From Clostridia bacterium (GTDB taxonomy: Bacteria > Bacillota > Clostridia > Oscillospirales > SIG627), in assembly GCA_017517325.1 (NCBI GenBank), contig JAFWZW010000013.1, positions 23,497 to 87,496 on the forward strand: a DNA stretch of 64,000 nt, given 5' to 3'. This document shows positions 23,842 through 64,000 of the stretch, piece by piece. Made by a program: the position numbers and the translations under genes. Position 1 is the first letter of the stretch, and every line of letters begins with the position of its first letter. The notes under the pieces were generated by a model, which worked only from the letters and a program-made list of their open reading frames with translations, was not told where the DNA came from and did not search any database.

Positions 23842-23951
23842 TAAATTGTTAACGGAATTTTGGGATATCCGGGATTCCTTATCTTTTTACCTTGCGTAAA
23901 AATACTATAGTTTCAAGCTCCGGCAAAGGTCGGGGCAAAGGAGGAAAAACC

Positions 23952-42088: not shown

Positions 42089-42275
42089 GGTGATCTCTCC
42101 CTTGTTTGATTATTTTTCACCCTGATGGGTGAGAGCGTTGCGCTCATGGTCAGTATATGAGAGGGAAATGTACCCGTTCGGGCACCGTTTATTCGAAAAG
42201 TAGAATAATTGTCGTTATGGCAAAAAGAGAGGGAAGAAAGGGAAAATTATTTCGGCGTTTTTCTTCAATTTAAAA

Positions 42276-43007
42276 TTATCCTAATATCACGTCCATCAGC
42301 ATCATCAGAGTAAAGCCGAAAAGAAAGCTTGCGTAACCTGCCCACCCCTCGCCCCCCTCCGAAAGGGCGGGGATCAATTCTACCGCCACTACGTACAGCA
42401 TGGCGCCGGCGGCAAAGGATAAAACGAAGGGGAGAGCAGGGAGGATCAGCGTGGTAAGAAGAATGGCAGAAACAGCGCCGATCGGCTCCACCACGCCGGA
42501 GACCACCCCTTGAAAAAACGCCCGGATTCTTTTTGTTCCCAAAGAGGCAAGGGGCATAGAGATCACGGCACCCTCGGGAAGGTTTTGCAAAGCAATGCCC
42601 AGGGAAAGGGTCAGTGCCGCCGCCATAGAGCCGGAACCTCCCATTGCCGCCGCCAGCGCTACGCCCACTGCCATTCCTTCGGGAATGTTATGAAGAGTAA
42701 CGGCCAAAGCCAAAATGCGCCCTCTGTCCTTGGCGGTCTTGCCCATCCGCTTTTTGTTTTCCAGCAGTACGTCGCCAAGTAAAAATAAAAGATATCCGAT
42801 GGTAAGTCCCGCTCCTGCGGGGAACACACCGCCGGTATCAAGGGCAGGAATAAGCAAGGACCAGACCGCCGCCGCTGTCATTACCCCTGCGGCAAAGCCG
42901 AAAAAGCCTTGCTTTAAAGAACACGCCATCCCACCCCGAAAAAGAAAAACAGCCGCCGCCCCCAGTGCTGTTCCTAAAAAGGGGAGGAGGATCCCGATTA
43001 AAATCAT
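42276..43007 (-). CDS. ZIP-family metal cation transporter (second copy)
   Basis: VTLHNIPEGMAVG and LQNLPEGAV motifs. Paralog of the 15438-16190 gene. Confidence 0.85.
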   Translation of the reverse strand: MILIGILLPFLGTALGAAAVFLFRGGMACSLKQGFFGFAAGVMTAAAVWSLLIPALDTGGVFPAGAGLTIGYLLFLLGDVLLENKKRMGKTAKDRGRILALAVTLHNIPEGMAVGVALAAAMGGSGSMAAALTLSLGIALQNLPEGAVISMPLASLGTKRIRAFFQGVVSGVVEPIGAVSAILLTTLILPALPFVLSFAAGAMLYVVAVELIPALSEGGEGWAGYASFLFGFTLMMLMDVILG

Positions 43008-49625: not shown

Positions 49626-49722
49626 ACTTCGAAAAATGCACAATTTTTAAAAGCGACCTTTGGGTAAAGTGCCGAAAAATTCAAAAAGTGCAAAAAGTAT
49701 AGGAAAGTGATGGAATTTTCTC

Positions 49723-49751
49723 TTGCAAATTTGCAAAAAAACAATTATAAT
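49723..49751 (+). promoter_or_regulatory. sigma-A-type promoter with a 14-bp perfect palindrome over the -35
   Basis: TTGCAA (49723-49728), 17-nt spacer, TATAAT (49746-49751). TTGCAAATTTGCAA (49723-49736) is its own reverse complement. Confidence 0.55.
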
Positions 49752-49810
49752 GATGATAAGTTACTATGGGTACAAGTATATCCATTGACAAACTATAGGA
49801 GGTTCTGCCA

Positions 49811-52800
49811 ATGTTTAAGAACTCGAAACTTTTGAAAGGAATCACTTTGGTGTTTGCTCTGGTCCTTTTGATCGGATGCGGCGTTGTACTCAGCAACGTT
49901 GCTGCTGCAAGCCCCAGAACGGTCGTTATGTACGTGGGCGACCCGGGTGATAATACCAGCGGTTTGGATGAGTCTACCGCGCTGCATTCTCTTGATGCTG
50001 CCATTCAGAAAGCCAATGAGATGAAATTGCCCAGCGGCTCTGAATTGAAGCTCATTGTGGTGGATCGTCTTACCATCACCACCAAGGGGTGTGATTCGAC
50101 TCTTGCTTTCGATGCCAGCGGTTTCCGTTTGCCCATTACCATTACCTCTTTGGAAACCACCAACGAGGATCAGTTCTCCGATCTGTATCTTGCCTATTTT
50201 GATGGTTCTGCAACCAGCGGAAATCAGTCTGCCGTCTTCTATAACGATATCACCTTTAAGGACGTAGGCATTACCGTAAAGGTGCAGCAGGATCGTGTGG
50301 GCTTCGTTGCCACCGCCAAGCGCTGGATGCAGAAGAACCTGCACTTTATCGGCAACATTACCACTTTTGATCATTGTGTGATCAAACCCGAAAGAACCGG
50401 TGATGACGTTGATTCTGTTATTTGCTATGCAGACTACAGCACCAACAACGCCTATATTGAATACGATAAGGTCGTAAACATCAAGAACGGCGACTATACC
50501 ACCGCTGCCTGGTTCTTGCATAATTATAGAGTTCCCTATGAAACTCTGACCGTTAATATGGAAAACGCTACCTTCGGTTCTCTTCACGTAGCACCTATGA
50601 CCTCAACCGCTACCACGCAGGACCTGAAGAAGTTTACCGTAAATCTGGGTGCAGGTACAACGGTAACGAATCTTTATATGTCCCGCCAGGGTCACATCGA
50701 TATTCCCGAAGGTATTACCATCAACTATTACGATGGTTGTAATGTTGTCACTCAAGTCGCTTGCACCTCCGCTTCCGATGATTCCGGCGCTGCAATGGCT
50801 TCCGACGTTACTCACAACGTATACGGCGGCAACATCACCCTTCTCATTGCCGGTTCCAGAGGTCCTTCTAAGGGCAACGTCACCTTGAATATGTACGGCG
50901 GCACCATCGGTACTTATTACGGCGGCGGTAACTACGCTACGTCTAAGGTTACGGGCGTTGTTACCAACAACATCTACGGCGGTACCATCGGTACCTTCTA
51001 CGGCGGCGGCCACGGCGGTTGTGCTGTGACCAAGGTTATCAACAACGTTACCGGCGGTGAAATTACCGCCAAATACTGCGGCGGCGGCAGAGACGTTAAC
51101 GTTTCCGAAAGCGTAGTAAACAACGTTTCCGATATCGCGATCAAAGGCAGTTACTTCGGCGGCGGTGAAGATGTTACCATTGGTAGTGTTGTCAACAACC
51201 TGAAGAACGTATCCATTACCAAAGAGTTTTACGGCGGAAGCTCCACCGGTACCATCACCGGCATTGAAAACAATCTTGAAAACGTGAAGCTTGCTGCTGA
51301 GTTCTACGGCGGAAGCACCTCCAATGCTACCATTGGCACCATTGTCAATAACATCTCCGGCGATCACGAGAACGGCGGCCGTTATTACGGCGCAAACTGC
51401 ACTGCGACGGCAGACGTGACCGGCTCCGTTACTAACAACATCTTCAGCGGTCACTTTAAAGGTGCCGGAAACTATCTTGGCAACCGTAAGGGTAATATGA
51501 CCGGTTCCATTATCAACAATATTTCCGGCGGTGTCTTTGATAATACCGTCTTTGGCGGTATTCGCGGCGAAGGGGTTGAAAGCCTTGCGCAAGGCGATAT
51601 TATCACTACCATTACCGGCGGTGAGTTCAAGGCTGATTTTTGTAACGGCAACGCCGAAGCGACCGATACCAGCCAGCGCAGAGGCAATATGACCGCCACC
51701 ATTACCGGCGGTGTGATCCACGGCTCCTTCTACGGCGGTCATAATGATGCATCCAGACTCTATGGCAATATTACCAATACAATGACCGGCGGCATCATCT
51801 ACGGCGATTTTGTAGGTGGTAACAAGGCAGACGGCACTATTAGAGGTTCCGTCAACACAACCCTCAATGGTGGTACCATCTACGGCACCGTAAACGGTGT
51901 GAACGGCGTGGAAGGTGTAGGCGGAGATTCTTATCTCCATATTCAGCCCAAGTCCGACGCACAAAGCCTGATCCTTTACGGCGTTATTCCCACCAATTCG
52001 AAACTTAAGACCTATTTTTACGGTGGCGAAGCTCCCTTGCTGATCGGCTCTGCATTCAATGCAAACAGCGTGAATTTCAGCACCGATGAATCCCTTACGG
52101 TTTCTCAGATCGAAAACTGGGTTCCCGATCATACCTACGTTCAGTTGAAATTTGCCGGTAACGGCAACCGTCTTGTTCCTCTTAACGGAAATTCCAATGT
52201 GACCGGCTCCGGTGCGTTTGACGGTCTTATTCTGAAGGGCAGTGCAATGCCTGCCGGCTCTACCGAAGTAGCGCCCGGTCTTACTACAATGGTTTCCTTC
52301 CACGTTTCCGATAGCCTCGGTGTTCGCTTCTGGGTTGAAAAGACCGCTGTGGAGGCTTATCTGCAGGCAAAGGGCAACTGGAGCTATTCTGTAACTCTTC
52401 TGGGAAATGAAGTTGCAAATGCAAGCATTACCTCTATTGATCAGATTCCCGCTGCGGATATTCGTAAAGATAAGAACGACGTTGAGTACGTGACCTTCAC
52501 CGCAGGCATCAGCGTTCCCGCATCTCAGTTCAATGAAGAGATCACCGTTGTTTTGGGCGGTGTGAACTCTACAAGCCATACCGTCTTCAAGCTTTTGGAA
52601 AACGGCGTTGACCAGTATGAGGCCGCAAATATGCCCGCGTATGCTCAGCTACTGAAAACGGTTCACAACTACGGTACTCAGGCATTCCGCGTCTTTGGTG
52701 ACGGCGAAGGTATGAATCAGTATACCGCGCCCTACACAGGTACCTATACCACCGTTCCTACCTTCACTAAGATTCGTGGCTACAGATTCAAAGATATCAG

Positions 52801-53149
52801 CCTTTCTCTTGATGAAAAGATCGCCATGAACTTCTACGCCGATTTCAATACCGACGTAACCTTCAAGGCAGTGGTTGAGGGCACCAATGAAGAATTGGAT
52901 CCTTCCAAGATCGTTGTGAAAAAGGTCGAGGGTGCTGACGGTTACAATACCATCGTAACCCTGAAATTGGATGCAGACGAAATCAACAATGTCTACGTGC
53001 TCTCCGCAATGATCGGTGATGAGGTAGTTGCAACCTGCACCAACAGCATTGCTTATTCCTGCGCTCTCTATCAGCAGGAAGGCATTCATGTAGAGCTTAT
53101 TGATTCCATTCTTGCTTATCTGGAAGCAGTTAAGGCGGTTGTAGCCTAA
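49811..53149 (+). CDS. 1112-aa secreted or lipid-anchored repeat protein with a beta-helix-like ~21-aa coil region
   Basis: AGGAGG RBS. Signal peptide with a possible lipobox LLIGC. Central run of NN[IV].GG.[IF]....[YF]GG units (e.g. VTNNIYGGTIGTFYGGGHGG). No anchor motif (LPXTG/SLH) seen by eye. Confidence 0.8.
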   Translation: MFKNSKLLKGITLVFALVLLIGCGVVLSNVAAASPRTVVMYVGDPGDNTSGLDESTALHSLDAAIQKANEMKLPSGSELKLIVVDRLTITTKGCDSTLAFDASGFRLPITITSLETTNEDQFSDLYLAYFDGSATSGNQSAVFYNDITFKDVGITVKVQQDRVGFVATAKRWMQKNLHFIGNITTFDHCVIKPERTGDDVDSVICYADYSTNNAYIEYDKVVNIKNGDYTTAAWFLHNYRVPYETLTVNMENATFGSLHVAPMTSTATTQDLKKFTVNLGAGTTVTNLYMSRQGHIDIPEGITINYYDGCNVVTQVACTSASDDSGAAMASDVTHNVYGGNITLLIAGSRGPSKGNVTLNMYGGTIGTYYGGGNYATSKVTGVVTNNIYGGTIGTFYGGGHGGCAVTKVINNVTGGEITAKYCGGGRDVNVSESVVNNVSDIAIKGSYFGGGEDVTIGSVVNNLKNVSITKEFYGGSSTGTITGIENNLENVKLAAEFYGGSTSNATIGTIVNNISGDHENGGRYYGANCTATADVTGSVTNNIFSGHFKGAGNYLGNRKGNMTGSIINNISGGVFDNTVFGGIRGEGVESLAQGDIITTITGGEFKADFCNGNAEATDTSQRRGNMTATITGGVIHGSFYGGHNDASRLYGNITNTMTGGIIYGDFVGGNKADGTIRGSVNTTLNGGTIYGTVNGVNGVEGVGGDSYLHIQPKSDAQSLILYGVIPTNSKLKTYFYGGEAPLLIGSAFNANSVNFSTDESLTVSQIENWVPDHTYVQLKFAGNGNRLVPLNGNSNVTGSGAFDGLILKGSAMPAGSTEVAPGLTTMVSFHVSDSLGVRFWVEKTAVEAYLQAKGNWSYSVTLLGNEVANASITSIDQIPAADIRKDKNDVEYVTFTAGISVPASQFNEEITVVLGGVNSTSHTVFKLLENGVDQYEAANMPAYAQLLKTVHNYGTQAFRVFGDGEGMNQYTAPYTGTYTTVPTFTKIRGYRFKDISLSLDEKIAMNFYADFNTDVTFKAVVEGTNEELDPSKIVVKKVEGADGYNTIVTLKLDADEINNVYVLSAMIGDEVVATCTNSIAYSCALYQQEGIHVELIDSILAYLEAVKAVVA
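50811..51915 (+). repeat. protein-level coil repeats (~18 units of ~20-24 aa) in the 1112-aa protein
   Basis: HNVYGGNITLL.. through ..LNGGTIYGTVNG. Each unit has [TN]N[NT][IVLM]xGGx[IF] followed by [YF]GG. Confidence 0.7.
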
Positions 53150-53169
53150 GTTTTCATTCAAAAATATTA

Positions 53170-53195
53170 CTGCCTCACTTCGGTGAGGCAGTTTT
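53170..53195 (+). terminator. rho-independent terminator
   Basis: CTGCCTCAC-TTCG-GTGAGGCAG followed by TTTT. Confidence 0.8.
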
Positions 53196-53218
53196 AATTA
53201 TCAAGGTAAGGAGCACTT

Positions 53219-53395
53219 ATGGTCTTTGAAGTGATTCAGGGGAAAACTGAGCTTGGGGGCGATTACCGTGAAATCTATTATTTCACCGATGAAATGGTCC
53301 CTTACCATAAAGAAATGGCGACCCGCGCCATCATTCGTGAATGCAAAGAGGGCGGCGCTTTGATCAACGAACAGATTTTTGTTTTAAAGAAATAG
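53219..53395 (+). CDS. hypothetical 58-aa protein (below the ORF-track cutoff)
   Basis: Manual translation: MVFEVIQGKTELGGDYREIYYFTDEMVPYHKEMATRAIIRECKEGGALINEQIFVLKK. AAGGAG RBS 6 nt upstream. Stop lies 8 nt before the CotH start. Confidence 0.45.
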   Translation: MVFEVIQGKTELGGDYREIYYFTDEMVPYHKEMATRAIIRECKEGGALINEQIFVLKK

Positions 53396-53403
53396 GAAAG
53401 AAT

Positions 53404-55950
53404 ATGGAAAGAAAAATTCCCGTAAGGCTATGGATCAGTTTGATCGCAACTGCCATTCTTTTGGCTGTATCCTTGGCTCTCTTCGTTTTCTATTTGAACG
53501 AAGGGAGCTATGGTGGCGTATTCGTAAAGCCCGATGTATCCCTTACGGTAGAAGCGGAAGGAAAGCCTCTTTTCCGTTCCGAGAGTACCAACCTTCTTTC
53601 TGAAGGAGAGCATACCCTTTTGATCCGAAATAAAGAAAGACGTAACGTTAAGGTTTCGTTCTTTGCAGGCTCTCAAAAGGTCGGTGAAGTAAACGTAGAA
53701 AAAGGGAAGTCGGCTCAGCTTGATTTTTCATTAGAGAAAGAAATGGCAATTTCTGCCGTTATAAGCGATGATGGAAATGACCTTGGGTATATTACTTCAA
53801 GCGATGCCCTGCTTCCGATTGCAGATGCAATGCCCAATGGGGGCGACCTTGTTTTTTTCGGAGGCGTAACACTGCCTGACGTTACGCTTTCCGCCAACTT
53901 TCGCCTTTATGGCACTTTTGATTTTTCATCTCTTTCCCTTTTAACCGAGAATGAAGGAAAGATCGTTTTGGCTCCCGATACCCCCTTTCAGGGCGATCTT
54001 TACGTTTCGGCACCTGAAAGTCAGGTGTATTTTCATAACTTTTCTCTATCAGCATCTGCAAAGAGCACCAACTTCTATATCAAGGCTAAGTCTTTGAACG
54101 GGGATATTCTGGATCCGGATGCGTACCCCGTTGCCTGTTGGGAAGAACTTTCCCGCCTTGGCAATGAAAACGCATTGCCGCAATTGCGTGAGGGGGCCGC
54201 TATTACCTTTACTGCACCGTTTAAGCTGATGTCAGACGTGAATCTTTGCGGCCATAGTTCATTGTTTTTTTGGGAAAGAATTGATTTTTCCGATTATCGA
54301 ATCACCCTTTCTGCGTCCTCTGCGGGCACCTATCGCGTGGTGACCGGTACGGGCACCGCCCCAACTGCAACACAGTTGCTGTTTGATGCACCCGAATCCA
54401 CCCTCACTTGGGAAGCCAATGGCAGTGAGCTTACCACCATCCCCGCTATGTCCACGGTAGAGCGATACTCAAATCTACTAAGCTATAACGGCGTAGATAC
54501 CACCCTTGGAGGTCGGGGTAGTGCTACCCCTACCCTGACCCTGTCTGCCGCAGATAACGCGTTTTTAGAGGCTGACGTGGCTTTTCTTGCGGAAGGCAAC
54601 CGTCTTGTGGGGATTCTGCCATATAACGTTACTTTTGACGATCTGAAGAATGCCGTATATAAGCTCTCTGCCACCGCGGGGAGTGCTCGCCTTGACGGCG
54701 ACCTCGCCACGGGCCACATTGTAACCGTTGATGAAAAGGGAGCCGAGCGCAGATTTTCCGTAGAGCTTCGGCGAGAAGCAAAGAACATTCCCGTTTTGTA
54801 TATTGAAACGGAGGGAAGAGAAGCGATCACCTCCAAATCGCAGTATAGCTCCGCAACCCTTTCTTTAGACGGCGCCGATACCGATATCAAATCCGTAATG
54901 GAAACCCATATTCGTGTACGCGGCAGAGGGAATTCAACTTGGAAATGGGATAAAAAGCCTTATAAGATCCACTTTGACGAGCCCGTTTCCATTCTGGGGC
55001 TGCCTGCTGCAGAGGAATGGGCGCTCTTCTCCAATTACGCGGATAAATCCCTGATGAGAAACCGCCTTGCCCAGAAAATGGCATCTACCCTTTCCTTTGC
55101 GTATTGCCCAACTCAGGAATACGTGGATCTTTTTTTGAACGGTGAATACTTGGGCGTTTATACCATTGGCGAGCATTTGGAAGAGGGGAGTGGCAGGGTC
55201 GAGGTGACCCACGATATGTCCAGGCGCGATTGTGGCTACTTTATGGAAGCAGGTGGCGTAGTCAGCGGGGTCGACGTAAAGGGAATGAACTATTTTCACG
55301 CAGGTCTTGTAAAGTTCGTTTTGGTAAAGGGGCCCGAATATAATACCCTAACGTCTGAACAGTTTGAGTTTATCAAGCAGTATATGCTCTCTGCGGACCG
55401 CGCCGTAAAAAGCGGCGATGGCTACGAAGAATATCTGGATATGGAAACGCTGGTGGATTGGCTCATTATGATTGAGCTGACCAATAATACCGATTGCGCT
55501 TGGCGCAGAAGCACGTATTTTACGAAAGATCCCGGTGAAAAAATAAAGCTCGGGCCCGTTTGGGATTTTGACCTCGCCTTCGGTAACTTCTCCAAAGACG
55601 TGGAGGGCTTTAATACTTGGGTCAGCACTTCCGAGGATGATTACGTTGGTGAAACCTGGTCTACCCATCTCTTGGAAGATCCTGAATTTCAAGAGACCTT
55701 CCGATCCCGCTGGAAAGAAGTGAAGGATGATCTTTTGGAATGTGCCCTGAATACCATTGATGAAGATTATGAAACTCTCTATCCCTCTGCTAAAGAAAAC
55801 TTTGAACGCTGGGATATTTTAGGCCGTAAGGTTGCCTTTGAACGGCACGATACCAAGTATTATAAGACCTATGCCTCCCAGATTCAGTATTTGAAAGACT
55901 TTTTAGTAAAGAGAGCCGCTTGGATCGACGGTCAGGTGGAAGCGTGGTGA
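53404..55950 (+). CDS. membrane-anchored CotH-family kinase-like protein with a ~470-aa unknown N-terminal ectodomain
   Basis: Signal-anchor helix LWISLIATAILLAVSLALFVF. C-terminal KKPYKIHFDE..WALFSNYADKSLMRNRLA..YVDLFLNGEYLGVYTIGEHLE..GPVWDFDLAFGN is the CotH pattern. Confidence 0.8.
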   Translation: MERKIPVRLWISLIATAILLAVSLALFVFYLNEGSYGGVFVKPDVSLTVEAEGKPLFRSESTNLLSEGEHTLLIRNKERRNVKVSFFAGSQKVGEVNVEKGKSAQLDFSLEKEMAISAVISDDGNDLGYITSSDALLPIADAMPNGGDLVFFGGVTLPDVTLSANFRLYGTFDFSSLSLLTENEGKIVLAPDTPFQGDLYVSAPESQVYFHNFSLSASAKSTNFYIKAKSLNGDILDPDAYPVACWEELSRLGNENALPQLREGAAITFTAPFKLMSDVNLCGHSSLFFWERIDFSDYRITLSASSAGTYRVVTGTGTAPTATQLLFDAPESTLTWEANGSELTTIPAMSTVERYSNLLSYNGVDTTLGGRGSATPTLTLSAADNAFLEADVAFLAEGNRLVGILPYNVTFDDLKNAVYKLSATAGSARLDGDLATGHIVTVDEKGAERRFSVELRREAKNIPVLYIETEGREAITSKSQYSSATLSLDGADTDIKSVMETHIRVRGRGNSTWKWDKKPYKIHFDEPVSILGLPAAEEWALFSNYADKSLMRNRLAQKMASTLSFAYCPTQEYVDLFLNGEYLGVYTIGEHLEEGSGRVEVTHDMSRRDCGYFMEAGGVVSGVDVKGMNYFHAGLVKFVLVKGPEYNTLTSEQFEFIKQYMLSADRAVKSGDGYEEYLDMETLVDWLIMIELTNNTDCAWRRSTYFTKDPGEKIKLGPVWDFDLAFGNFSKDVEGFNTWVSTSEDDYVGETWSTHLLEDPEFQETFRSRWKEVKDDLLECALNTIDEDYETLYPSAKENFERWDILGRKVAFERHDTKYYKTYASQIQYLKDFLVKRAAWIDGQVEAW

Positions 55951-56876
55951 GTGGATTGGAAAAGAAGAATCTGCGTCTTCCCTCGTCCGACGGTGTCCAC
56001 ACCCTTGCGGGAACGCTCTATGAGCCCGTAGGGGAGGTGCAGGGCATCGTTCAGGTGATTCACGGTATGACCGATTACACGGATCGCTACGAGCACCTCC
56101 TTATAAGCTTGGCGGAAGCGGGCTACGTTGCCTTTGGCTTCGATCAGTTGGGGCACGGTCACACCGCAAAGGATCTTTCCGAGCTTGGGTTTATTGCGAA
56201 AAAGAATGGCTGGCGTTACCTTGTTTCGGACGTGGGCGTTACCTCACAACACCTGCGCTCATCCTACGGAGTAGAATTACCCTACGTGCTTTTAGGGCAC
56301 AGTATGGGGTCCTTTGTTGCCCGCTGTGCGGTGGCAGATAAGATCGTTTCACCACAAAAAATGATTTTGGTAGGAACGGCCGCCGCCGAGCCCGCCGCAC
56401 CGATGGGGATCGCCCTTTCCCGTGGGATCTCCGCTCTTTACGGCGCCGACCACGTGTCACATTTTATGCAGGCTATGGTCTTTGGGGATTACGACAAACG
56501 CTTCCCCGGTGATTATCCCAATCGCTGGATCACGGTGGATACGGAAAATCTCATTCGCTATAAGGATGATCCTTTCTGCACCTTCCGTTTTTCCGTTTCA
56601 GCCCTTTCTGATTTGATCACCCTTCATAGCCGCGCCAATTCACGCCGATTCTTCACTACCGTTCCCGCGGAGCTTTCCATACTGTTGCTATCCGGCTCCG
56701 ATGACCCCGTTGGAAACTACGGAAAAGGGATAAAATGGGTAGAAAAGCGCCTGCTCCGTAACGGAAAAAAAGCAACCTGCAAGCTGTATCAAGGCTTTCG
56801 TCACGAGATCCTGCAGGACTTTTGTCGGGAACAGGTAACGGCTGATATTTTGAATTTTATAACGAATGAAAAATGA
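55947..56876 (+). CDS. alpha/beta hydrolase (lysophospholipase/monoacylglycerol-lipase-like)
   Basis: GHSMGS nucleophile elbow, HG oxyanion motif (VIHGMTDY), late D and H (GFRHEIL). GTGA overlap with the CotH stop. The ORF track starts at 55920. Confidence 0.75.
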   Translation: MSGLEKKNLRLPSSDGVHTLAGTLYEPVGEVQGIVQVIHGMTDYTDRYEHLLISLAEAGYVAFGFDQLGHGHTAKDLSELGFIAKKNGWRYLVSDVGVTSQHLRSSYGVELPYVLLGHSMGSFVARCAVADKIVSPQKMILVGTAAAEPAAPMGIALSRGISALYGADHVSHFMQAMVFGDYDKRFPGDYPNRWITVDTENLIRYKDDPFCTFRFSVSALSDLITLHSRANSRRFFTTVPAELSILLLSGSDDPVGNYGKGIKWVEKRLLRNGKKATCKLYQGFRHEILQDFCREQVTADILNFITNEK

Positions 56877-56905
56877 CCTTCACAACAAAGTGAAGGTCAT
56901 TTTTT
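56874..56905. terminator. terminator between convergent genes
   Basis: TGACCTTCAC (56874-56883) / GTGAAGGTCA (56890-56899), followed by T6. Confidence 0.8.
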
Positions 56906-56914
56906 CTATATCTT

Positions 56915-57922
56915 TTAATGTTGCGGTAACTGTATTTCGGGCTTTAAGGTGTTATTGGCAACGGCTTCGTGAGCGGCGTTTTGCAGAAGCTTAATGCGCT
57001 CTTCCGAAATGGCTTCGATCTCGCCGGTCTGTTCGTTCTTATACTTGGGGCGGAAGCTGTTATCCAGGCAGCTCATACCGGTGAGAGATTCAAACCAAGT
57101 GCAGGCGTTCAGGTACTGACCGCCGGTGATCTTGCCGTCATGGTAGCCATCGCGGGAGAGATCGCCGCTTCCGTTGGCTCTGGCAATGGCAAAGGCATCA
57201 CCGCTGGGGATCAGGGCAACCCCGTTATCCTGTGCCATTTTGATGGATACTGCGCGGATGTTTTCGTGACATAGGGTCTGGCAGGCCAAATCGGGAACGG
57301 ACTGATCGTCGCGCTTCCAGCCAACCTCGTAAGCCCATGTCTGGTGCCAAACCAGCTTGGACTTGGGGTAATTTTCCTTGATATAATCGTAAAGATCCTT
57401 TACGAAGGGCTCACAGCTCTTAAGAGCTTTATCATAGTCAACGGCAATGTTGGGGCCAAAGTGCTGCTGAAGGGAGATCACGTCCCAATTTTTCTTCTTC
57501 AGGCAGTATTCAAGATTTACGGGATCGTCATCGGAAATGCCGCCGTCTTGCTCGTGGTGGCGGAGGCGGTAGTGCTTCTGACCGGATTTCAGCCAGTTCC
57601 AATGGGCGCTGACGGGACAACCGGAATAATACACGGTGAAAATGTTGACCTTAATGCCGGCGGCCGTGAAAAGACCGTTCAATTCGTCGGGCCAACCGGT
57701 GGAAAAGCTGTTGCCGATCACCAGAACGTTCAGGTAACGGTCAGCGGTAGGATCGGGCTGTTCCTTCTTGATTTCTACGGGAGCAGGTTTGGTTTCTTTT
57801 GTAGCTGCTTCCTCCGTTTTAGTTGCTTCTGGCTCCGTAGAAGCAAGGCTGGGCCCCCCGCAAGAGGTAAGCAGGGTAGCAAGTAAGAGAAAAAGAGCAA
57901 ATAATCTGAATTGTGTTTTCAT
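56915..57922 (-). CDS. DUF4886 (SGNH-hydrolase-like) lipoprotein, copy 1
   Basis: Lipobox LLTSCGG. VLVIGNSFS..YYSGC....HW..WDVISLQQHF..WHQTWAYE pattern. AAGGAG RBS before ATG 57922. Confidence 0.7.
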   Translation of the reverse strand: MKTQFRLFALFLLLATLLTSCGGPSLASTEPEATKTEEAATKETKPAPVEIKKEQPDPTADRYLNVLVIGNSFSTGWPDELNGLFTAAGIKVNIFTVYYSGCPVSAHWNWLKSGQKHYRLRHHEQDGGISDDDPVNLEYCLKKKNWDVISLQQHFGPNIAVDYDKALKSCEPFVKDLYDYIKENYPKSKLVWHQTWAYEVGWKRDDQSVPDLACQTLCHENIRAVSIKMAQDNGVALIPSGDAFAIARANGSGDLSRDGYHDGKITGGQYLNACTWFESLTGMSCLDNSFRPKYKNEQTGEIEAISEERIKLLQNAAHEAVANNTLKPEIQLPQH

Positions 57923-57935
57923 AAGAGACTCCTTT

Positions 57936-58907
57936 TTATTTGATCGTATTTTCTTCCACCGCACGGTGAGCGGCATCCTGAAGTGCCGCGATCTTGTATT
58001 CATCCAGCGTGTACGGCGGCTTCCAGGTATTGCCGAGGCAGCTTTGCCCCGTCAGACACTCAAACCAAGTGCATGCGTTGAGATATTGCCCGCCCCCTTC
58101 AGGGCCGTCGTGGTAGTTGTCACGGGTAAGATTTACGATCTCTGCGCTCTGCCGTGCGTATTGCCAGGCATCACCGCATGGCACAAGAGAAACGCCGTTT
58201 TCTTTGGCGACCTTTTGGGAAACGTCACGAATGTTCTCATAGCATTTGGTCTGATAAGCTACATCGGGAATTGATTCCTCGTCACGCTCCCAGCCAACCT
58301 CGTAAGCCCAGGTCTGGTGCCAGTAGATTCTGGATTTGGGGAAGTTCCATTTTAAATAATCCAAAAGATCCTTGGCGTAGGGGGTGCAAGAATCCAAAGA
58401 AGCCTTGTAGTCGATGGCGGTGGTGGGGCCGAAGTGCTGTTGAAGGGAGATCACGTCCCAGTTATCCGTAGCAAGGCATTCCACCAGGCTTTTTCCTTCC
58501 ACGGCTTTGCGGTTACCCAAATCGTTCAGGTGGTGGTTCAGGCGGTAGTTGTGCGCGTCCTCCTGCAGCCAATCCCAGTGCTGATCCAGCCTGCAACCGG
58601 AATAGTAAACGGAGTAAATGTTCAGCTTCAACCCGGCCGCCATAAACAGCCCCTTCAGCTCGTCGGGCCAGCCGGTGGAAAAACTGTTTCCGATAATGAG
58701 AACGTCAAGCTCACCGTCGGCGGCGGGGTCCTCCTGCTCAACGGTGCTTTGGATCACTTCTTCCGTTTTGATTTCTTCTACCGTTTCGCTTTTCGGTTCA
58801 GCCTTTTCTTCGGTATTCTTTGTCGTTTCCCCTCCGCAAGCGGAAAGAAGGAGGGAAAGTAGCAACAACCATATCATAAGGTTTCGGGTAAGAAGTCGTT
58901 TTTTCAT
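57936..58907 (-). CDS. DUF4886 (SGNH-hydrolase-like) lipoprotein, copy 2
   Basis: Lipobox LLSACGG. Same motif set as copy 1 and clearly alignable throughout. Stop lies 13 nt before the copy 1 start. Confidence 0.7.
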   Translation of the reverse strand: MKKRLLTRNLMIWLLLLSLLLSACGGETTKNTEEKAEPKSETVEEIKTEEVIQSTVEQEDPAADGELDVLIIGNSFSTGWPDELKGLFMAAGLKLNIYSVYYSGCRLDQHWDWLQEDAHNYRLNHHLNDLGNRKAVEGKSLVECLATDNWDVISLQQHFGPTTAIDYKASLDSCTPYAKDLLDYLKWNFPKSRIYWHQTWAYEVGWERDEESIPDVAYQTKCYENIRDVSQKVAKENGVSLVPCGDAWQYARQSAEIVNLTRDNYHDGPEGGGQYLNACTWFECLTGQSCLGNTWKPPYTLDEYKIAALQDAAHRAVEENTIK

Positions 58908-58944
58908 CATAACCTCACAAAATATAAAGCATAATACCACCTCT

Positions 58945-58973
58945 ATTGTATACAAATTACAGAAAAAAGTCAA
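58945..58973 (-). promoter_or_regulatory. sigma-A-type promoter of the DUF4886 pair
   Basis: On the minus strand: TTGACT (58973-58968), 17-nt spacer, TACAAT (58950-58945). Confidence 0.55.
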
Positions 58974-58998
58974 TTCAAAACAGCATTTTCCCAATCCG

Positions 58999-59042
58999 AA
59001 AGCAAAAAGAAAGCCAACCGAGGTTGACTTTCTTTTTGCTTT
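58999..59042 (-). terminator. long hairpin terminator after the giant gene
   Basis: AAAGCAAAAAGAAAGCCAACC / GGTTGACTTTCTTTTTGCTTT, a 21-bp stem with one mismatch. Confidence 0.75.
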
Positions 59043-59047
59043 AAATC

Positions 59048-62000
59048 TTAGTACGTCAGATTTTCCAGAAGAACGATCTTCTCACCGGTAGAGAGCTGAA
59101 CCGAAATGGTCACTTTGTTTTTGCCGGTCTGAAGGTCAACGGAAGCATCGAAGATGCCGGGGTGATTCATCATACTAACTGCATTGTTGGATGCGCGAGA
59201 GGTTTTTTCAAAGAGTACGGTTCCGTTTTCATTGGTAAAGGTTGCGGTTACGTCGGAAATGAAATAGTTGCTGTACACGATGAAATTCTGCAATTGGTTG
59301 TAAGTTATTTTGCTGATGTTTTCCGCTACGGGGGTGATCGTAGGTTCGGTTGCCACAATTTTTGTTTGATTTCCGTATCCATTCAGCACATAGTTCGGGG
59401 TTCCCGTGGTACTGGGAGATACGCTGAATCCTATTTTTACAAAAGATTTTTCCGTGGCACCGATCAGCTTTCCGTTCTCATCAAGATTTACAAGATCGCC
59501 CTTGGAGATCAGGCTCTGGTTCTTTTCAACCACTCCTGTTTCGGGGTTGTAAACCGATACGTTACGAAGATCTAACGTAGACTTGGTATAGCGTGTCGTC
59601 ATAACGTTGTTAAGAGCGTTGTTCAAAATGTAGGTGTTATAGAATTCGATGTGGGTTCTATCCAGATCGGTTTGCGTTGCAGGGTCGAAATTCTGGAATT
59701 CAATGAAGGTGAAGGGCATATAGCCGGTATCTTTCAAAAACGTGAAGGTGTTCTTTGCGGTAGAATAACTACCGGCTTTTTCACCATAAAAATTCTCAAA
59801 ATAATCGTAGTAGGCTCTGCCCTGGCGGGTGTAGGGAGTATCATTGCCATTGCCCCACGTACTCCTATGATCGGTAATGGATTCGTGATTTCTGTCTTTG
59901 TCAGCTTGATCGTAAGAATGATCGGTAGAGGAAAGTGCCCAACCCTCGATCTCTTCGATCACGGCGATGTAGCTGTTATCGGGGTCGATGATTGTGATGG
60001 GAGTCCTGCTACTCTGGCTTTCATAAACCGTCTTTGTTGCGATATGTACGTCCCGAACCATCATAACGTGACCTTTTTTGGAGATGCAATCACCGGGCTT
60101 AACCAGCCTGTAGTAGTCGTAGATGTTGTAATGGGTCACTTTCGAGCGTAAATAACGTGTGCTACCCTCGTAGTACGTTTTGGAACCCAATTCTGTTTTT
60201 GTTATGTATGGGCATTGGTATTTAGTCGTGAAATAATCCGTGGTCATATCATAAGACTCATAGTCGCCCTCTGCAAAATACTCAAAGCCGCCTACGGGAA
60301 TCATACCGCGTGCAACGCAGAAGGATGCGGAGCCCTGAGCGGCACCGGTGTTGCATACACGCATCCAGGCCCAGTTTGCACCGTTGGAGCACTGATTGTA
60401 GAAATAGGCGGAGCCGGGGTTAAAGGTGCCGTCGGCAGAGTAGCCGCCGTTATCCTGCATCATTTGGCTTAAGTAGAAGATACCGGTGGTTTCGTCGTAG
60501 TATTCCATCCAGCGGTAAAGGTTACCGTTACCGTGGGACTGATAAGGAATACCGCCGTAAAGGGCACCCTTGTCGATGAGCTTGTTTACGCCGTCTTTTT
60601 CTGCTACTGTGCCATCCTCATCGTCTGATTCGCCCTTCAGGTTGGTGGTTTTGTATTTCAACTGGCTCTTATCCGGTGTCCAGGTGAAGGAGAGCTGAAG
60701 CTCAAAGTAGTTGACCACCTGTTCGCGAAGTGCATCGGTAAAGGCTTTGTCCTGGCCGTTCTCTGCATAGTTGATTGTGACCTCATTCTCTTCCATTACT
60801 GACAGAGTTAGGGTCTGTTCTTCGTTAAGCAGGTCGTTTACCTTGATGATACTATTCAGTCCGTTCGGTCCGTCTGCCGTCAGCTTCTTTTCCTCTTCAA
60901 CCCATTCGGTTCTTTGCTCGGTGGGAACCTCGGGGTAATCTCCAGGATTGGCAACGGTTGTGAATTTTTTGCCGTTTTCCGTGCCGGTTACGGTAGAATA
61001 GTGAACGGTGCCGGTATCCGGGGTTTCGATGTAACCGGTCGCTTCTTTTTTTGTGAACTCGGTTCCGTCGGCCGTTTTCCCGCTTTCGAATATTTTAATG
61101 TTTTCTACAGTTGCCATTCCGTCCAGAGCAACGCTTTCCTGCAGATCTTCGGAAACGCTTGCGTTGCCGTAAACCTTTATACCGACGTCGGCCATGGGTG
61201 CACGGAGTTCATAGCCGCATTCGCCGCAGGTAAGAACGAAAGTGCGTTCCACGCGAGGATATTCTAAGTAAACCTTGCCGGAAGTCAACCCGTTGGGTGC
61301 CTTTTCAGAATCTACCACGAAAGGCTGATATTTTGAAATTTTAGCGTTGGCTATCGTACCCGGAACAGCCGCCGTTTCGCCGCTTTGGCAAACGTGACCG
61401 GACCATGATACCGCGCCGCCATCTGGTTTGCCGCCGAGGTATACCTCTTCGTTGTTAGAATACTCATCCAGTTTCAGGTATGCGTTTTCCCCGATCAGAA
61501 TGTTGGCACGAGTGGAACTAACGGAAGTGTTGGTAAGCTTGACACATTCGGCTTCGCCGTGAAGGGATTTTACTTCCCCGTTGAAGCGAAGCGTATTCTC
61601 CGCTTGATTGTGTATGGCAATTTCCATGTAAGCGCAGTCCGTAGCGGAGCCGTAATTGTTTACAGCGTTACCGGGGTAAACGTTGCCAAAGAAGTTGCCG
61701 CGGGAAAGGGTGCTGGTCACTTTGTTGATCGTCGCAGTTTGGTTTTGGCTGCCGCCGTAAACGGTACCGTTGAAGGTAGCAGCTGTTTTAATGGTATTCG
61801 TAGAATCACCGAAGGTGTTCGTAATGCTTCCCGTGATCTTTGCAGCATCGGAACCGCCGTAAACCTCTTTATTGAAGGTACCGGCGTAGAAGGTGTTATC
61901 CACCTTGCCACTGATGACGGATTCGGCATTCTGACTGCCGCAGTAAACTGCGTCATCAAAGGTGCCGCCCTTGAAGACGTTTTTGACGGTGTAGCTTGCA

Positions 62001-64000
62001 CTCACGTCGGCTTTATAGGATGCGCCGAAGAACATGCCTTTGAAATCGCCGCCGTTTACGTTGTTGGTAACGTTACGAACAGAGGAGTTCTTGCTGCCGC
62101 CGTGAACGGCGCAGTTGAAGGTGCCGCCAAAAAAGTTGTTGGTAACGTTGCCGGTTTTTCCTATGCCGCCACCGTGGATGCCTCTTGCTGCGTTTGTATT
62201 GTTAAAGGTACCGCCTTTAAAGGTGTTGACGATGGCTTCGTAGTTGTTAACCGTTGGCGAGGCGTTGCCGCCGGCAAATTCGCCGTTGAAAACACCGCCC
62301 TGAATCAGGTTTGTAATACCGGTGGTGTTGCCATAGTAGGAACCGCAACGAATCGATTCATAGGTGCCGCCGTTGAAGGTGTTTTGAATTGAGCCGTTGG
62401 TAGCATTGTAGGAAGCACCGAAGAAGGTGCCGCTAAACGTGCCGTTCTCTACGGTGTTGGTTACGTCTTTATTGGTGCCTTCGTTGTTACCACCGTAAAC
62501 GTTGAACGCAAAGGTGCCTCCGTCAAAGGTGTTTTGGATCGTACCGGAAACGGTTCCGGCAGCAGAGCCTCCGAAAACTGATGCCATCGATTCTTCGCCG
62601 AAGTTACCGTTAAAGTTGCCGCCTGTGAAGCTGTTGGTGACGGTGGTGTTAACGTTTCCGGTTCCTGCACCGCCGTAAACCTCAGCGTTAAAGGTGCCAC
62701 CTTCAAATTTGTTTTGAATGGTGCTGATGTTGTTTGCAGCGTTGGAAGCACCGTGGAACGCGCCGTTAAAGGTGCTGCTCTTTACGGTGTTAATGATCTT
62801 TTGGTTAGAGCCTTCGTTGTTACCGCCGTAAACGGCGCCGTTGAAGGTGCTGCCGTTGAAGGTGTTTTGAATCGTACCGGAAACGGTTCCGGCAGCAGAT
62901 CCGCCGTAAACCGTAGAGCTTGCTTCAAAGATACCGCCTTCAAAATTGTTTTGAATGACACCGGTGTTACCGGCGGCATTGGAAGCACCGTGGAACGCAC
63001 CGTTAAAGGTGCCGCTCTTTACGGTGTTGGTAACGGCCGCGTTGGAGCCTGCGTTGTTACCGCCGTGGAACGCACCGTTAAAGGTTGCACCTTCTACGGT
63101 GTTTTCGATCTTGCCGCTAACGGTTTTTGCGGCTGAGCCGCCGTAAACCGCAGAGGTTTCCTCAAAGGTACCGCCCTTGAAGGTGTTCGTGATGTTGGCG
63201 GCAATGTTTACGTTGGCAGAACCACCGTAAACCTCAGCGGTAAAGGTGCCGCCTTCAAAGCTGTTCCGAATGGAACTGCTGACGGTTGCGGCGTTGGTAG
63301 CACCGTGGAATGCACCGTTAAAGGTACCGTTCTTTACGGTGTTGATAATGGCTGCGTTGGAGCCTTTGTAGGATCCGCCGTAGAATGCGCCGACGAAGGT
63401 GCCGCCTTCCACGGTGTTTTGAACGGTACCGCTGATGGGTGCCGTATTGGCGCCGCCGTAGAATGCACCGTTAAAGGTGCCGCTCTTTACGGTGTTGGTA
63501 ACGTTTTGGTTGCTGCCGCTTCCATCACCGTTGGCGTTTGTGTTGCTGTTACCACCGTAAACGGAGGCGTTGAAGATACCGCCGTTGAAGGTATTTTCAA
63601 TGGTTGAAACGGCAATGGAGCTTCCCCCGTGCCATTCGGTATTACTGCTGAATTCACCGCCCGTTACGTGATTGGTAATGCTTCCGTTCACGGTACCGTT
63701 TACACTGGCACCTAACCAGAAATCACCGCTGAAGGTACCGCCTTCTACGGTGTTTTCAATGTCTTGAACGGACGTTGATAAAACGTCGATCTTGCCGCGG
63801 TTACCGCCGGCGAATGAATTATGAAATCTGCCGTCTTTAATGGTGTTGGTGATGTTACCGCTGATCATAGTGCCGAAGCCGCCACCGTTAAAGGTGTAGA
63901 AGGTACCACCGGAAACGGTATTTACGATGTTGCCGGTAAGGGCACTGAAGCGGTTGCCGGCATACCAGTAATTGTGGAAGGTACCACCGGAAATTTCGTT
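59048..64000 (-). CDS. giant (>1650 aa) repeat protein, 5' end outside window: ~21-aa coil array, then mixed domains including a possible papain-fold Cys/His module
   Basis: The ORF track starts at M 63868, but the frame stays open to 64000 with the same repeats (NEISGGTFHNYWYAGN..NTVSGGTFYTFNGGGFGT). More than 35 units of [IV].N[TN][FV].GG[TI]F....[VFY][YFH]GG[SNA]. Confidence 0.85.
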   Translation of the reverse strand, partial: NEISGGTFHNYWYAGNRFSALTGNIVNTVSGGTFYTFNGGGFGTMISGNITNTIKDGRFHNSFAGGNRGKIDVLSTSVQDIENTVEGGTFSGDFWLGASVNGTVNGSITNHVTGGEFSSNTEWHGGSSIAVSTIENTFNGGIFNASVYGGNSNTNANGDGSGSNQNVTNTVKSGTFNGAFYGGANTAPISGTVQNTVEGGTFVGAFYGGSYKGSNAAIINTVKNGTFNGAFHGATNAATVSSSIRNSFEGGTFTAEVYGGSANVNIAANITNTFKGGTFEETSAVYGGSAAKTVSGKIENTVEGATFNGAFHGGNNAGSNAAVTNTVKSGTFNGAFHGASNAAGNTGVIQNNFEGGIFEASSTVYGGSAAGTVSGTIQNTFNGSTFNGAVYGGNNEGSNQKIINTVKSSTFNGAFHGASNAANNISTIQNKFEGGTFNAEVYGGAGTGNVNTTVTNSFTGGNFNGNFGEESMASVFGGSAAGTVSGTIQNTFDGGTFAFNVYGGNNEGTNKDVTNTVENGTFSGTFFGASYNATNGSIQNTFNGGTYESIRCGSYYGNTTGITNLIQGGVFNGEFAGGNASPTVNNYEAIVNTFKGGTFNNTNAARGIHGGGIGKTGNVTNNFFGGTFNCAVHGGSKNSSVRNVTNNVNGGDFKGMFFGASYKADVSASYTVKNVFKGGTFDDAVYCGSQNAESVISGKVDNTFYAGTFNKEVYGGSDAAKITGSITNTFGDSTNTIKTAATFNGTVYGGSQNQTATINKVTSTLSRGNFFGNVYPGNAVNNYGSATDCAYMEIAIHNQAENTLRFNGEVKSLHGEAECVKLTNTSVSSTRANILIGENAYLKLDEYSNNEEVYLGGKPDGGAVSWSGHVCQSGETAAVPGTIANAKISKYQPFVVDSEKAPNGLTSGKVYLEYPRVERTFVLTCGECGYELRAPMADVGIKVYGNASVSEDLQESVALDGMATVENIKIFESGKTADGTEFTKKEATGYIETPDTGTVHYSTVTGTENGKKFTTVANPGDYPEVPTEQRTEWVEEEKKLTADGPNGLNSIIKVNDLLNEEQTLTLSVMEENEVTINYAENGQDKAFTDALREQVVNYFELQLSFTWTPDKSQLKYKTTNLKGESDDEDGTVAEKDGVNKLIDKGALYGGIPYQSHGNGNLYRWMEYYDETTGIFYLSQMMQDNGGYSADGTFNPGSAYFYNQCSNGANWAWMRVCNTGAAQGSASFCVARGMIPVGGFEYFAEGDYESYDMTTDYFTTKYQCPYITKTELGSKTYYEGSTRYLRSKVTHYNIYDYYRLVKPGDCISKKGHVMMVRDVHIATKTVYESQSSRTPITIIDPDNSYIAVIEEIEGWALSSTDHSYDQADKDRNHESITDHRSTWGNGNDTPYTRQGRAYYDYFENFYGEKAGSYSTAKNTFTFLKDTGYMPFTFIEFQNFDPATQTDLDRTHIEFYNTYILNNALNNVMTTRYTKSTLDLRNVSVYNPETGVVEKNQSLISKGDLVNLDENGKLIGATEKSFVKIGFSVSPSTTGTPNYVLNGYGNQTKIVATEPTITPVAENISKITYNQLQNFIVYSNYFISDVTATFTNENGTVLFEKTSRASNNAVSMMNHPGIFDASVDLQTGKNKVTISVQLSTGEKIVLLENLTY
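61670..64000 (-). repeat. protein-level ~21-aa coil repeat array with a higher-order (~63-85 aa) periodicity
   Basis: For example, NTVKSGTFNGAF occurs twice exactly, with near-copies NTVKNGTFNGAF and NTVKSSTFNGAF. IQNTF.G.TF..VYGGNNEG also recurs. Confidence 0.85.

Follow-up and report, generated by a model that had tools for sequence, protein, structure and literature searches.

What kind of system is encoded by the convergent gene cluster at positions 49723 to 64000 of a 64,000-nucleotide stretch of DNA from a Clostridia bacterium (assembly GCA_017517325.1, contig JAFWZW010000013.1; the whole stretch being referred to below as 'the window')? Two giant repeat proteins, here called A and B, flank genes for a CotH-type kinase, an alpha/beta hydrolase (Hyd) and two DUF4886 lipoproteins (D1 and D2), together with a 58-residue open reading frame (ORF) that we term s58. 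A first-pass annotation had seen in this a single apparatus with two arms, offering a surface-layer (S-layer) or adhesin role with 'dedicated modifying enzymes', which we would still regard as supposition. We see instead some five transcription units, each of them found independently of the others, and a small ORF, formerly treated as incidental, that proves to be the best-conserved member of the cluster and the strict partner of CotH. Our preferred reading is a tentative one, held with somewhat less than even confidence: a modular locus for cell-surface display and polymer modification, lying next to an operon for an outward-facing CotH ('ecto-CotH') rather than forming a single operon with it, in an uncultured, Oscillospirales-like gut bacterium of the Clostridia.

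Layout of the cluster

The genes of the cluster are as follows, lengths being given in amino acids (aa):

49811–53149, plus strand: protein A, 1112 aa
53219–53395, plus strand: s58, 58 aa
53404–55950, plus strand: CotH, 848 aa
55947–56876, plus strand: Hyd (Hydrolase_4), 309 aa, GTG start
56915–57922, minus strand: D1, DUF4886 lipoprotein, 335 aa
57936–58907, minus strand: D2, DUF4886 lipoprotein, 323 aa
59048 to past 64000, minus strand: giant B, of which the window holds the C-terminal 1650 of 2384 aa
L021:1001–2563, just past the window end, minus strand of the window: 520-aa lipoprotein, lipobox LSAC

The ORFs of the window match the genes called on the 101.7-kb contig of origin (ENA ERZ27256852 k141_2369881; L001), and the genes, signals, promoters and terminators first annotated here were all found in their places; the domain calls for CotH, Hydrolase_4 and DUF4886 are likewise borne out by Pfam, and the export signals hold. 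The extent of the cluster was right for the genes within the window, but stops short of the rest of B and of the 520-aa lipoprotein, both of which lie outside: the frame of B has no stop in the last 132 nucleotides (nt) of the window and runs to its full 2384 aa on the source contig. In L021, from the same species, the order is HhH-GPD, 520-aa lipoprotein, B, D2 and D1, converging with Hyd, CotH, s58, A and ComEC. Extracytoplasmic signals are present on all products of the cluster except s58 and Hyd. The combination had been put forward as an undescribed one, and we found no such system in Pfam, NCBIfam, PDB or the literature searched; nor does that literature describe a CotH with a small partner gene.

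Transcription units

Working along the sequence, five units can be distinguished: A; s58–CotH–Hyd, which is translationally coupled, the GTG start of Hyd overlapping the TGA stop of CotH (GTGA); D2–D1; B; and the 520-aa lipoprotein outside the window. Four of the five (A, D2–D1, B and the 520-aa gene) have near-consensus sigma-A-type hexamers of their own, those of the 520-aa gene being TTGACT-17-TATAAT. The signals mapped in the window are:

49723–49751, plus strand: gene A promoter, TTGCAA-17-TATAAT, sigma-A-type (scan and sequence)
49752–49810, plus strand: gene A 5' leader, ending in the ribosome-binding site AGGAGG; conserved in 9 lineages
53169–53192, plus strand: intrinsic terminator after gene A; 10-bp stem with 6 GC pairs, T-run
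56868–56905, both strands: bidirectional terminator at the convergence point; 15–16-bp stem found on each strand
58973–58945, minus strand: D2–D1 promoter, TTGACT-17-TACAAT, sigma-A-type
about 59004–59037, minus strand: terminator-like hairpin and T-run after the B stop; read from the sequence, missed by the scanner

A hairpin equivalent to the terminator that follows A precedes s58 in 13 of the 13 loci examined, and most relatives have an extended −10 promoter (TGTGCTACAAT or similar) before s58. Judged by their consensus matches alone, the cluster genes would be vegetative and probably strongly expressed.

The hexamers of the gene A promoter are invariant across nine lineages (alignment A6). 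Taking promoter and leader together (49716–49813), mean column identity in these lineages is 81%, the A proteins themselves being 27–44% identical; invariant blocks include TTTnCTCTTGCAAA, TATAAT, GATAA, TATGGGTA and AGGAGGTTCT. This region may bind a protein or affect the stability of the mRNA. That the leader is a known or structured RNA was considered and set aside, there being no Rfam match and a weak 4-bp hairpin without covariation. The −35 hexamer lies inside a 14-bp palindrome, TTGCAAATTTGCAA; this palindrome, already picked out in the first annotation, is indeed present at gene A, but is confined to this species and its 79% relative and missing from the other lineages, and was rejected as a conserved operator. 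Upstream, a 10-mer (TGCACAATTT, 49637–49646) directly follows the ComEC stop and recurs in 10 of 10 orthologous ComEC–A intergenic regions inspected.

Conservation of the neighbourhood

Our survey of gene neighbourhoods was anchored on s58, using one genome per species and mapping the window proteins by tblastn. The related loci come from metagenome-assembled genomes (MAGs) of Eubacteriales or Oscillospiraceae, including those of goat cecum and rumen. Co-conservation is evident: the full layout is seen in GCA_045580105.1 and most of it in GCA_045541915.1 and L008, which refutes a random juxtaposition. In GCA_045580105.1, one contig (L009) carries ComEC, A, s58 and CotH residues 1–269, ending within CotH, and another (L026) carries CotH residues 268–848 (66% identity), Hyd (62%) and three DUF4886 genes (57–63%), continuing with a B-like 1841-aa protein, a 757-aa DUF4886 fusion and HhH-GPD; the two together are the full convergent layout in a second species-level MAG. 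In GCA_045541915.1, A–s58–CotH converges on two DUF4886 genes and two lipoproteins of the Cys/His family described below (L011); L025 carries HhH-GPD and a DUF4886 protein of 743 aa, besides two giants, one of them B-like and the other a repeat protein with Lipase_GDSL_2 at its end. Hyd directly follows CotH in L026 and in L008 (56% identity), the latter being conserved through Hyd.

Elsewhere the pieces come apart. A homologue of A precedes s58–CotH in L002, L003, L006–L009, L011 and L015, and in two tandem copies in L016; in L002, L003 and L016, A–s58–CotH occurs without the other arm, CotH there abutting HhH-GPD/AAA genes. In L010 and L012–L014, s58–CotH occurs without A, after EF-G-like and ribulose-phosphate-epimerase genes, and L004 has A without s58 or CotH. 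Since s58–CotH sits beside EF-G-like/epimerase genes in the former and beside ComEC–A in other lineages, it occupies two alternative chromosomal contexts. Gene content between CotH and HhH-GPD varies, and we therefore regard this interval as a variable island (Hyd, the DUF4886 pair, B and the 520-aa lipoprotein). An IS200/IS605-like transposase ORF (L011:19199–19651) lies at the outer edge of the island, which is consistent with a mobile or rearranged element; the window itself has an EF-G-like paralogue at 23892–26009 (plus strand).

The s58–CotH pair

At the centre of the plus-strand arm we find the most constant association of the cluster. This species and 12 related loci all have CotH as a transmembrane (TM)-anchored protein of 843–850 aa with s58 immediately before it, the stop of s58 lying 6–10 nt before the CotH start or overlapping it (the loci being L002, L003 and L006–L016, with L006/L007 counted once). 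Across these loci s58 is 69–88% identical (76–88% in alignment A2); the identity of protein A in L002/L003, at about 30%, is far below this.

CotH itself matches Pfam PF08757 along the whole profile (1–322 of 322; E 4.1e-51, 174.8 bits against a cut-off of 23.8). The features mapped in it are:

53428–53493, plus strand: CotH TM segment, residues about 9–30; Kyte–Doolittle maximum 2.7 at residue 11
54916–55926, plus strand: CotH domain, residues about 505–841

The nine orthologues compared are 51–58% identical overall, with a nearly invariant C-terminal domain, and their profile matches Bacillus cereus CotH (5JD9) with an E-value of 1.4e-5. D697 (in NNTDC) and D721 (in PVWDFD) are invariant in all nine and align to the NFDG and WDYD of the B. 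cereus protein; allowing for a +4 numbering offset, they are probably equivalent to the catalytic and metal-binding Asp residues of B. subtilis CotH (D228 and D251), at which the substitutions D228Q and D251A inactivate the enzyme (PMC7821199). All orthologues have a basic stretch at the start and then one hydrophobic segment, from which the positive-inside rule predicts a kinase domain on the outside; we would accordingly regard CotH as type II anchored.

In its CotH domain and in both catalytic aspartates, then, the protein resembles its Bacillus counterparts. It differs in being 848 aa long with a signal-anchor, rather than soluble and of about 360 aa; in a 470-aa region between anchor and kinase domain that has no Pfam match; in a kinase domain predicted to be extracytoplasmic; in the s58 gene that always stands in front; in the lack of CotG/CotB-type substrate genes nearby; and in the sigma-A-like promoter seen in relatives. 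Two other groups also invite comparison. One comprises the secreted or cellulosomal CotH homologues of Clostridia, such as Ruminiclostridium cellulolyticum Ccel_1101; those of cellulosomes are non-CAZyme components of undefined function (PMC12774918). The other is the cotH-PPP-DUF4956-DUF4832 accessory group found in pel loci of Gram-positive bacteria (PMC7112168). In both, CotH has no defined function and is extracytoplasmic, its setting being the envelope or an extracellular polymer. Here, by contrast, there is no dockerin and there are no polyphosphate polymerase, DUF4956 or DUF4832 neighbours; the protein has a membrane anchor instead of being secreted; and an s58 partner is not described for either group.

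The small partner has no hydrophobic segment by hydropathy and is presumably a soluble, cytoplasmic protein. An identity for it was sought in PHROGs, Pfam and NCBIfam, and none was found. Its family comprises at least 621 small proteins (56–69 aa among the 120 best matches listed), without a Pfam domain or an informative name among its members. A close subgroup of about 60 clusters is at least 67% identical, and those members examined in context are all CotH-linked; the remainder (38–59% identity) are typified by prophage copies. Genes resembling s58 also occur on 41 IMG/VR viral contigs, where 34 of the 41 start no more than about 50 nt past a minor-head gene of Mu F or minor-capsid-2 type, whose C-terminal ~210 residues carry HExxH and E-D-F-A-E-S motifs. 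An arrangement has been described in phages in which a MuF protein ends in a toxin domain and an immunity gene comes next. By analogy, s58 may bind or inhibit the enzyme encoded beside it, upstream or downstream. The phage HExxH domain was tried as a homologue of CotH and rejected (hmmsearch --max, best E 0.27). Phage and prophage copies in head modules (L018:10001–10186, L019:9983–10168 and L028–L068) stand beside HExxH/EDFAES motifs that are metallopeptidase-like, in an arrangement resembling an enzyme/partner or toxin/immunity pair.

Giant proteins A and B and their shared coil

The paralogy of the two giants and their common coil unit, both proposed at first pass, stand: the repeat regions of A and B align by composition-adjusted BLASTP with an E-value of 8e-23 and 28% identity, through a G/N/T-rich unit of 25–26 residues. 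In B, 23 strict copies of N-T-[VF]-x-G-G-T-F-x3-[FY]-[YH]-G-G lie 25–34 residues apart (median 26). The N-termini are also alike (MKNSKIWKGI... in B, MFKNSKLLKGI... in A).

Protein A has a signal peptide (residues 1–33) with a conserved AxA site, at which cleavage is suggested, and an invariant A33; hydropathy shows a single, N-terminal hydrophobic segment. Its LIGC motif is not conserved, and A is therefore not counted as a lipoprotein. In an AlphaFold2 model built on 15 homologues (predicted local distance difference test score, pLDDT, 83.6; predicted template-modelling score, pTM, 0.71), a low-confidence N-terminal helix corresponding to the signal peptide is followed by an unbroken series of short strands (residues 37 to about 745), the pattern of a beta-solenoid, and then by a C-terminal region (about 750–1112) of beta-sandwiches and helices. 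A search of BFVD with Foldseek returned an AidA-domain protein as best match (E 5.9e-4), together with pectate-lyase-type proteins, all at low TM-score. We thus describe A as a predicted secreted beta-solenoid. By sequence it matches nothing in Pfam, NCBIfam or PDB, and phmmer searches of PDB with A, B and CotH gave no matches; its relatives number 22 among 5.8 billion protein clusters, all of them unnamed and without Pfam domains. A distant relative (L005) has three giant A-like proteins, with an ORF of 46–51 aa after each (1446–1592, 6067–6222 and 14872–15012); these ORFs begin MKKVYE[ST]P or MMKNAYVSP, are unrelated to s58 and may represent another family of small partner peptides.

Membership of known repeat families, as suggested by the first-pass annotation, was not borne out. 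Neither giant matches Chlam_PMP (PF02415) or POMP (TIGR01376) in Pfam/NCBIfam at E ≤ 0.01, and the repeat arrays alone gave no match to Chlam_PMP, POMP, Beta_helix or pectate-lyase families even at E ≤ 10. The likeness to autotransporter beta-helical passengers and the Chlamydia Pmp repeats (GGA[ILV]/FxxN) is one of character: Gly/Asn/Thr-rich coils of ~25 residues with GG-x-F and [FY]-G-G motifs, an all-beta solenoid predicted for A, and the AidA-domain match. The differences are a Gram-positive lineage, the absence of a beta-barrel translocator and of a family match by sequence, and the enzyme-like C-terminal domains in which giant B ends.

B comprises an N-terminal anchor, at least 25 coils of 25–26 residues and a C-terminal Cys/His domain, those parts that fall in the window being:

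about 62051–64000 and beyond, minus strand: B coil array, then a linker
59051–60784, minus strand: B Cys/His domain and C-terminal beta-sandwich
60389–60391, minus strand: candidate catalytic Cys codon
60068–60070, minus strand: His codon

Repeats of the B type are found in 53 large proteins (1,041–2,846 aa) from Ruminococcaceae/Oscillospiraceae-type MAGs, a few of which bear SLH, Cadherin-like or Lipase_GDSL_2 domains: P0026 ends in Lipase_GDSL_2 (an SGNH esterase), and P0052, a distant relative, has SLH wall-anchor domains. A and B themselves show no SLH or CWB Pfam match and no C-terminal LPXTG sorting signal. The idea that such giants travel generally with CotH or esterases was dropped, as they stand alone elsewhere. 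With B ending in the Cys/His domain and P0026 in an SGNH esterase, these proteins look like enzyme-displaying stalks, and the earlier view of B as a mere repeat protein or adhesin has to be revised.

The Cys/His domain

The last ~580 residues of B are unrelated to the coils, and have as homologues the 520-aa lipoprotein (a free-standing paralogue of this domain, encoded upstream of B), the two lipoproteins of L011 and, in L002, a protein of 431 aa. An exhaustive HMMER search yields a family of 234 representatives, mostly of 415–460 aa, one member having choline-binding repeats. Sixty members were aligned (A8): they have a lipoprotein-type N-terminus with a nearly invariant lipobox Cys, and the residues R20, G78, Y81, C132, R142, H239, E362, N506, Y507 and G567 are invariant. 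No Pfam domain covers the region in any of the 60, and a profile search of PDB returned nothing. In the AlphaFold2 model (pLDDT 75.9, pTM 0.82), C132 sits where a helix begins and H239 where a strand begins, with a beta-sandwich after; the model is compatible with a thiol hydrolase.

The order of motifs (G-[IV]-P-Y, Q-C-S and K-P-[GA]-D-x...G-H-V-M-M-V) recalls the papain-like hydrolases of the NlpC/P60 group, as do the predicted positions of Cys and His on helix and strand. The differences are a Cys–His spacing of about 107 residues and the lack of a match by profile or fold: Pfam NLPC_P60 is absent from all 60 members, the PDB profile search was negative, hhalign against Escherichia coli MepS gave a probability of 1.7%, and Foldseek returned no such match. 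As these tests of an NlpC/P60 identity all failed, we treat the domain as a new family, for which a hydrolytic role is probable but unproven.

Hydrolase and DUF4886 esterases

Hyd matches Pfam Hydrolase_4 (PF12146; E 5.7e-34), has a GHSMG nucleophile elbow and no signal peptide, and probably stays in the cytoplasm. D1 and D2 are 54% identical to each other, and an identical D2 protein is found on 15 contigs from several samples. Both lie well above threshold for DUF4886 (PF16227), with E-values of 3.5e-45 for D1 (lipobox LTSC|G; block I GNSFS, block V DGYH) and 6.1e-47 for D2 (lipobox LSAC|G; GNSFS, DNYH). With block I Ser and block V DxxH kept, as in carbohydrate esterases of the SGNH clan, and their Ser/Asp/His motifs intact, they are predicted to be lipoprotein esterases of this clan. 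DUF4886 is an SGNH family without known activity; most characterised SGNH families act on carbohydrates (PMC9487903). Here its members are tandem lipoprotein paralogues, and relatives have fusions of 743–757 aa.

Other genes in the window

Upstream of A lie cotJA–cotJB–cotJC, the last encoding a Mn catalase (window 41540–43007 region; L001:861–2278), within a syntenic block conserved in the clade that includes Zip, HU, PpiC, a G5-M23 peptidase, PGA_cap and ComEC. Further away, a 987-aa multi-TM protein (16372–19335, plus strand) has a C-terminal (KKNED)x6 repeat and no Pfam match at 1e-5; its gene sits in a stretch of lower GC content (0.46–0.47 against about 0.50–0.52).

Discussion

Our preferred reading of the cluster, as a modular display and polymer-modifying locus beside an ecto-CotH operon, leads to the following picture, our inference extending to the substrate and to any connection of one arm with the other. 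The giants A and B would act as rigid stalks holding catalytic or binding modules off the membrane; a beta-helix rises 4.8 Å per rung, from which the solenoid of B would be more than 12 nm long, with the lipoprotein paralogues working close to the membrane. Outside the cell, esterases and Cys/His hydrolases would together remove ester groups from a polymer or cut it, this polymer being a dietary glycan or else the wall or capsule of the bacterium itself. The s58–CotH pair would be an older, independent module beside which the hydrolase island was inserted, between CotH and HhH-GPD; the two may share a substrate but need not.

Several observations weigh against this picture. With arms that are separable, and A alone in L004, adjacency could simply reflect an insertion hot-spot. 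The promoter of the s58 unit is not obvious in this species, being clear only in relatives, and an outward-facing CotH kinase has no obvious supply of ATP. Across the cluster we find no glycoside hydrolase (GH), carbohydrate-binding module (CBM), sugar transporter, regulator, sortase signal or SLH/CWB anchor. Structural comparison with PDB by Foldseek gives protein A weak Ig-like matches and no significant beta-helix, and given this weak placement the solenoid class is inferred, not demonstrated; for the Cys/His fold it gives weak beta-sandwich matches (E ≥ 0.06), and in the absence of a fold match the word 'hydrolase' rests on two invariant residues and predicted secondary-structure positions.

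Some of these points speak for inherited synteny in a narrow clade without any shared function, s58–CotH(–Hyd), A and a lineage-variable island of D1/D2, B and the 520-aa gene having come together at a permissive CotH/HhH-GPD site; we consider this rather unlikely. In its favour, each unit has its own promoter and terminator; the units separate in L002, L003 and L016, in L010 and L012–L014, and in L004; B-type giants stand alone elsewhere; and the island varies in its number of DUF4886 genes (2–3), Cys/His lipoproteins (0–2) and giants (1–2), in the presence of Hyd and in the IS200-like ORF at its L011 edge. Set against this, the island adjoins CotH in three species-level lineages, the CotH-coupled Hyd is confined to genomes that show the island or whose contig stops before it could appear (the window, L026 and L008), and the products other than s58 and Hyd are all extracytoplasmic. 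L012 cuts both ways: in a different context it has a DUF4886 pair within 4 kb of s58–CotH, but an unrelated ABC transporter and a sulfite-reductase-like gene lie in between, weakening it as an independent linkage of CotH and DUF4886.

Two further explanations assign the cluster a definite setting. A surface complex for dietary glycans (plant cell wall, pectin or xylan), with esterases deacylating and beta-helix giants binding or cleaving polysaccharide and CotH serving as it does in cellulosomes, strikes us as improbable. The preference of characterised SGNH families for carbohydrates and the cellulosomal CotH homologues (PMC9487903; PMC12774918) fit it, as do the expansion of esterase paralogues typical of foraging loci, the goat cecum and rumen origin of related MAGs, and the presence in L005 of GH28, an alpha-amylase and a GH43-related gene next to distant A relatives; yet A, B and the N-region of CotH lack any GH, polysaccharide lyase, carbohydrate esterase, CBM or dockerin Pfam domain, relaxed thresholds included, the cluster lacks a transporter or a sugar-responsive regulator, Hyd lacks a signal peptide, and the synteny is with housekeeping envelope genes (G5-M23 peptidase, PGA_cap and ComEC). 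Very improbable, in our view, is a spore-surface (coat or exosporium) module in which CotH phosphorylates structural proteins and A and B form filaments or layers on the spore. Phosphorylation of the spore coat is the only proven role of CotH (PMC7821199), both catalytic aspartates are conserved here, and cotJA–cotJB–cotJC, about 7.5 kb upstream of A, make the organism a probable spore former; these genes belong, however, to the longer syntenic block and not to the cluster, the promoters fit sigma-A (TTGACA/TATAAT and extended −10 TGTGCTACAAT) rather than the sigma-E or sigma-K consensus, CotH is a TM-anchored protein of 848 aa and not a soluble one of about 360 aa as in Bacillus, no Ser/Lys/Arg-rich CotG/CotB-like substrate gene is adjacent, and the Sec signals and lipoproteins suggest a place at the cell membrane.

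Returning to the modular display locus, a more specific proposal for its CotH operon is that s58 and the anchored CotH form an undescribed two-component extracytoplasmic phosphorylation module, s58 being an obligate regulator, chaperone or inhibitor and CotH phosphorylating either the neighbouring beta-solenoids or a wall or dietary glycan then processed by the esterases and Cys/His hydrolases; we hold this to be quite improbable as it stands. Should the units prove unrelated, the value of these observations reduces to the annotation of families. Even so, the locus is built largely from uncharacterised ones: the coil family, the Cys/His lipoprotein domain and the s58 family shared with phages are all absent from Pfam and PDB. 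The coil family builds surface proteins of 1,100–2,800 aa in gut Oscillospirales-like bacteria, and a 'stalk plus terminal enzyme' architecture is thereby suggested for Gram-positive surface proteins. CotH proteins that are secreted or lie at the surface occur widely in Firmicutes, cellulosomes and pel loci included, without an assigned function (PMC12774918; PMC7112168); s58 and its exported neighbours are concrete candidates for a regulator and for substrates of CotH, and the s58–CotH module, if such it is, would open a first way into the function of the many CotH proteins that bacteria secrete.

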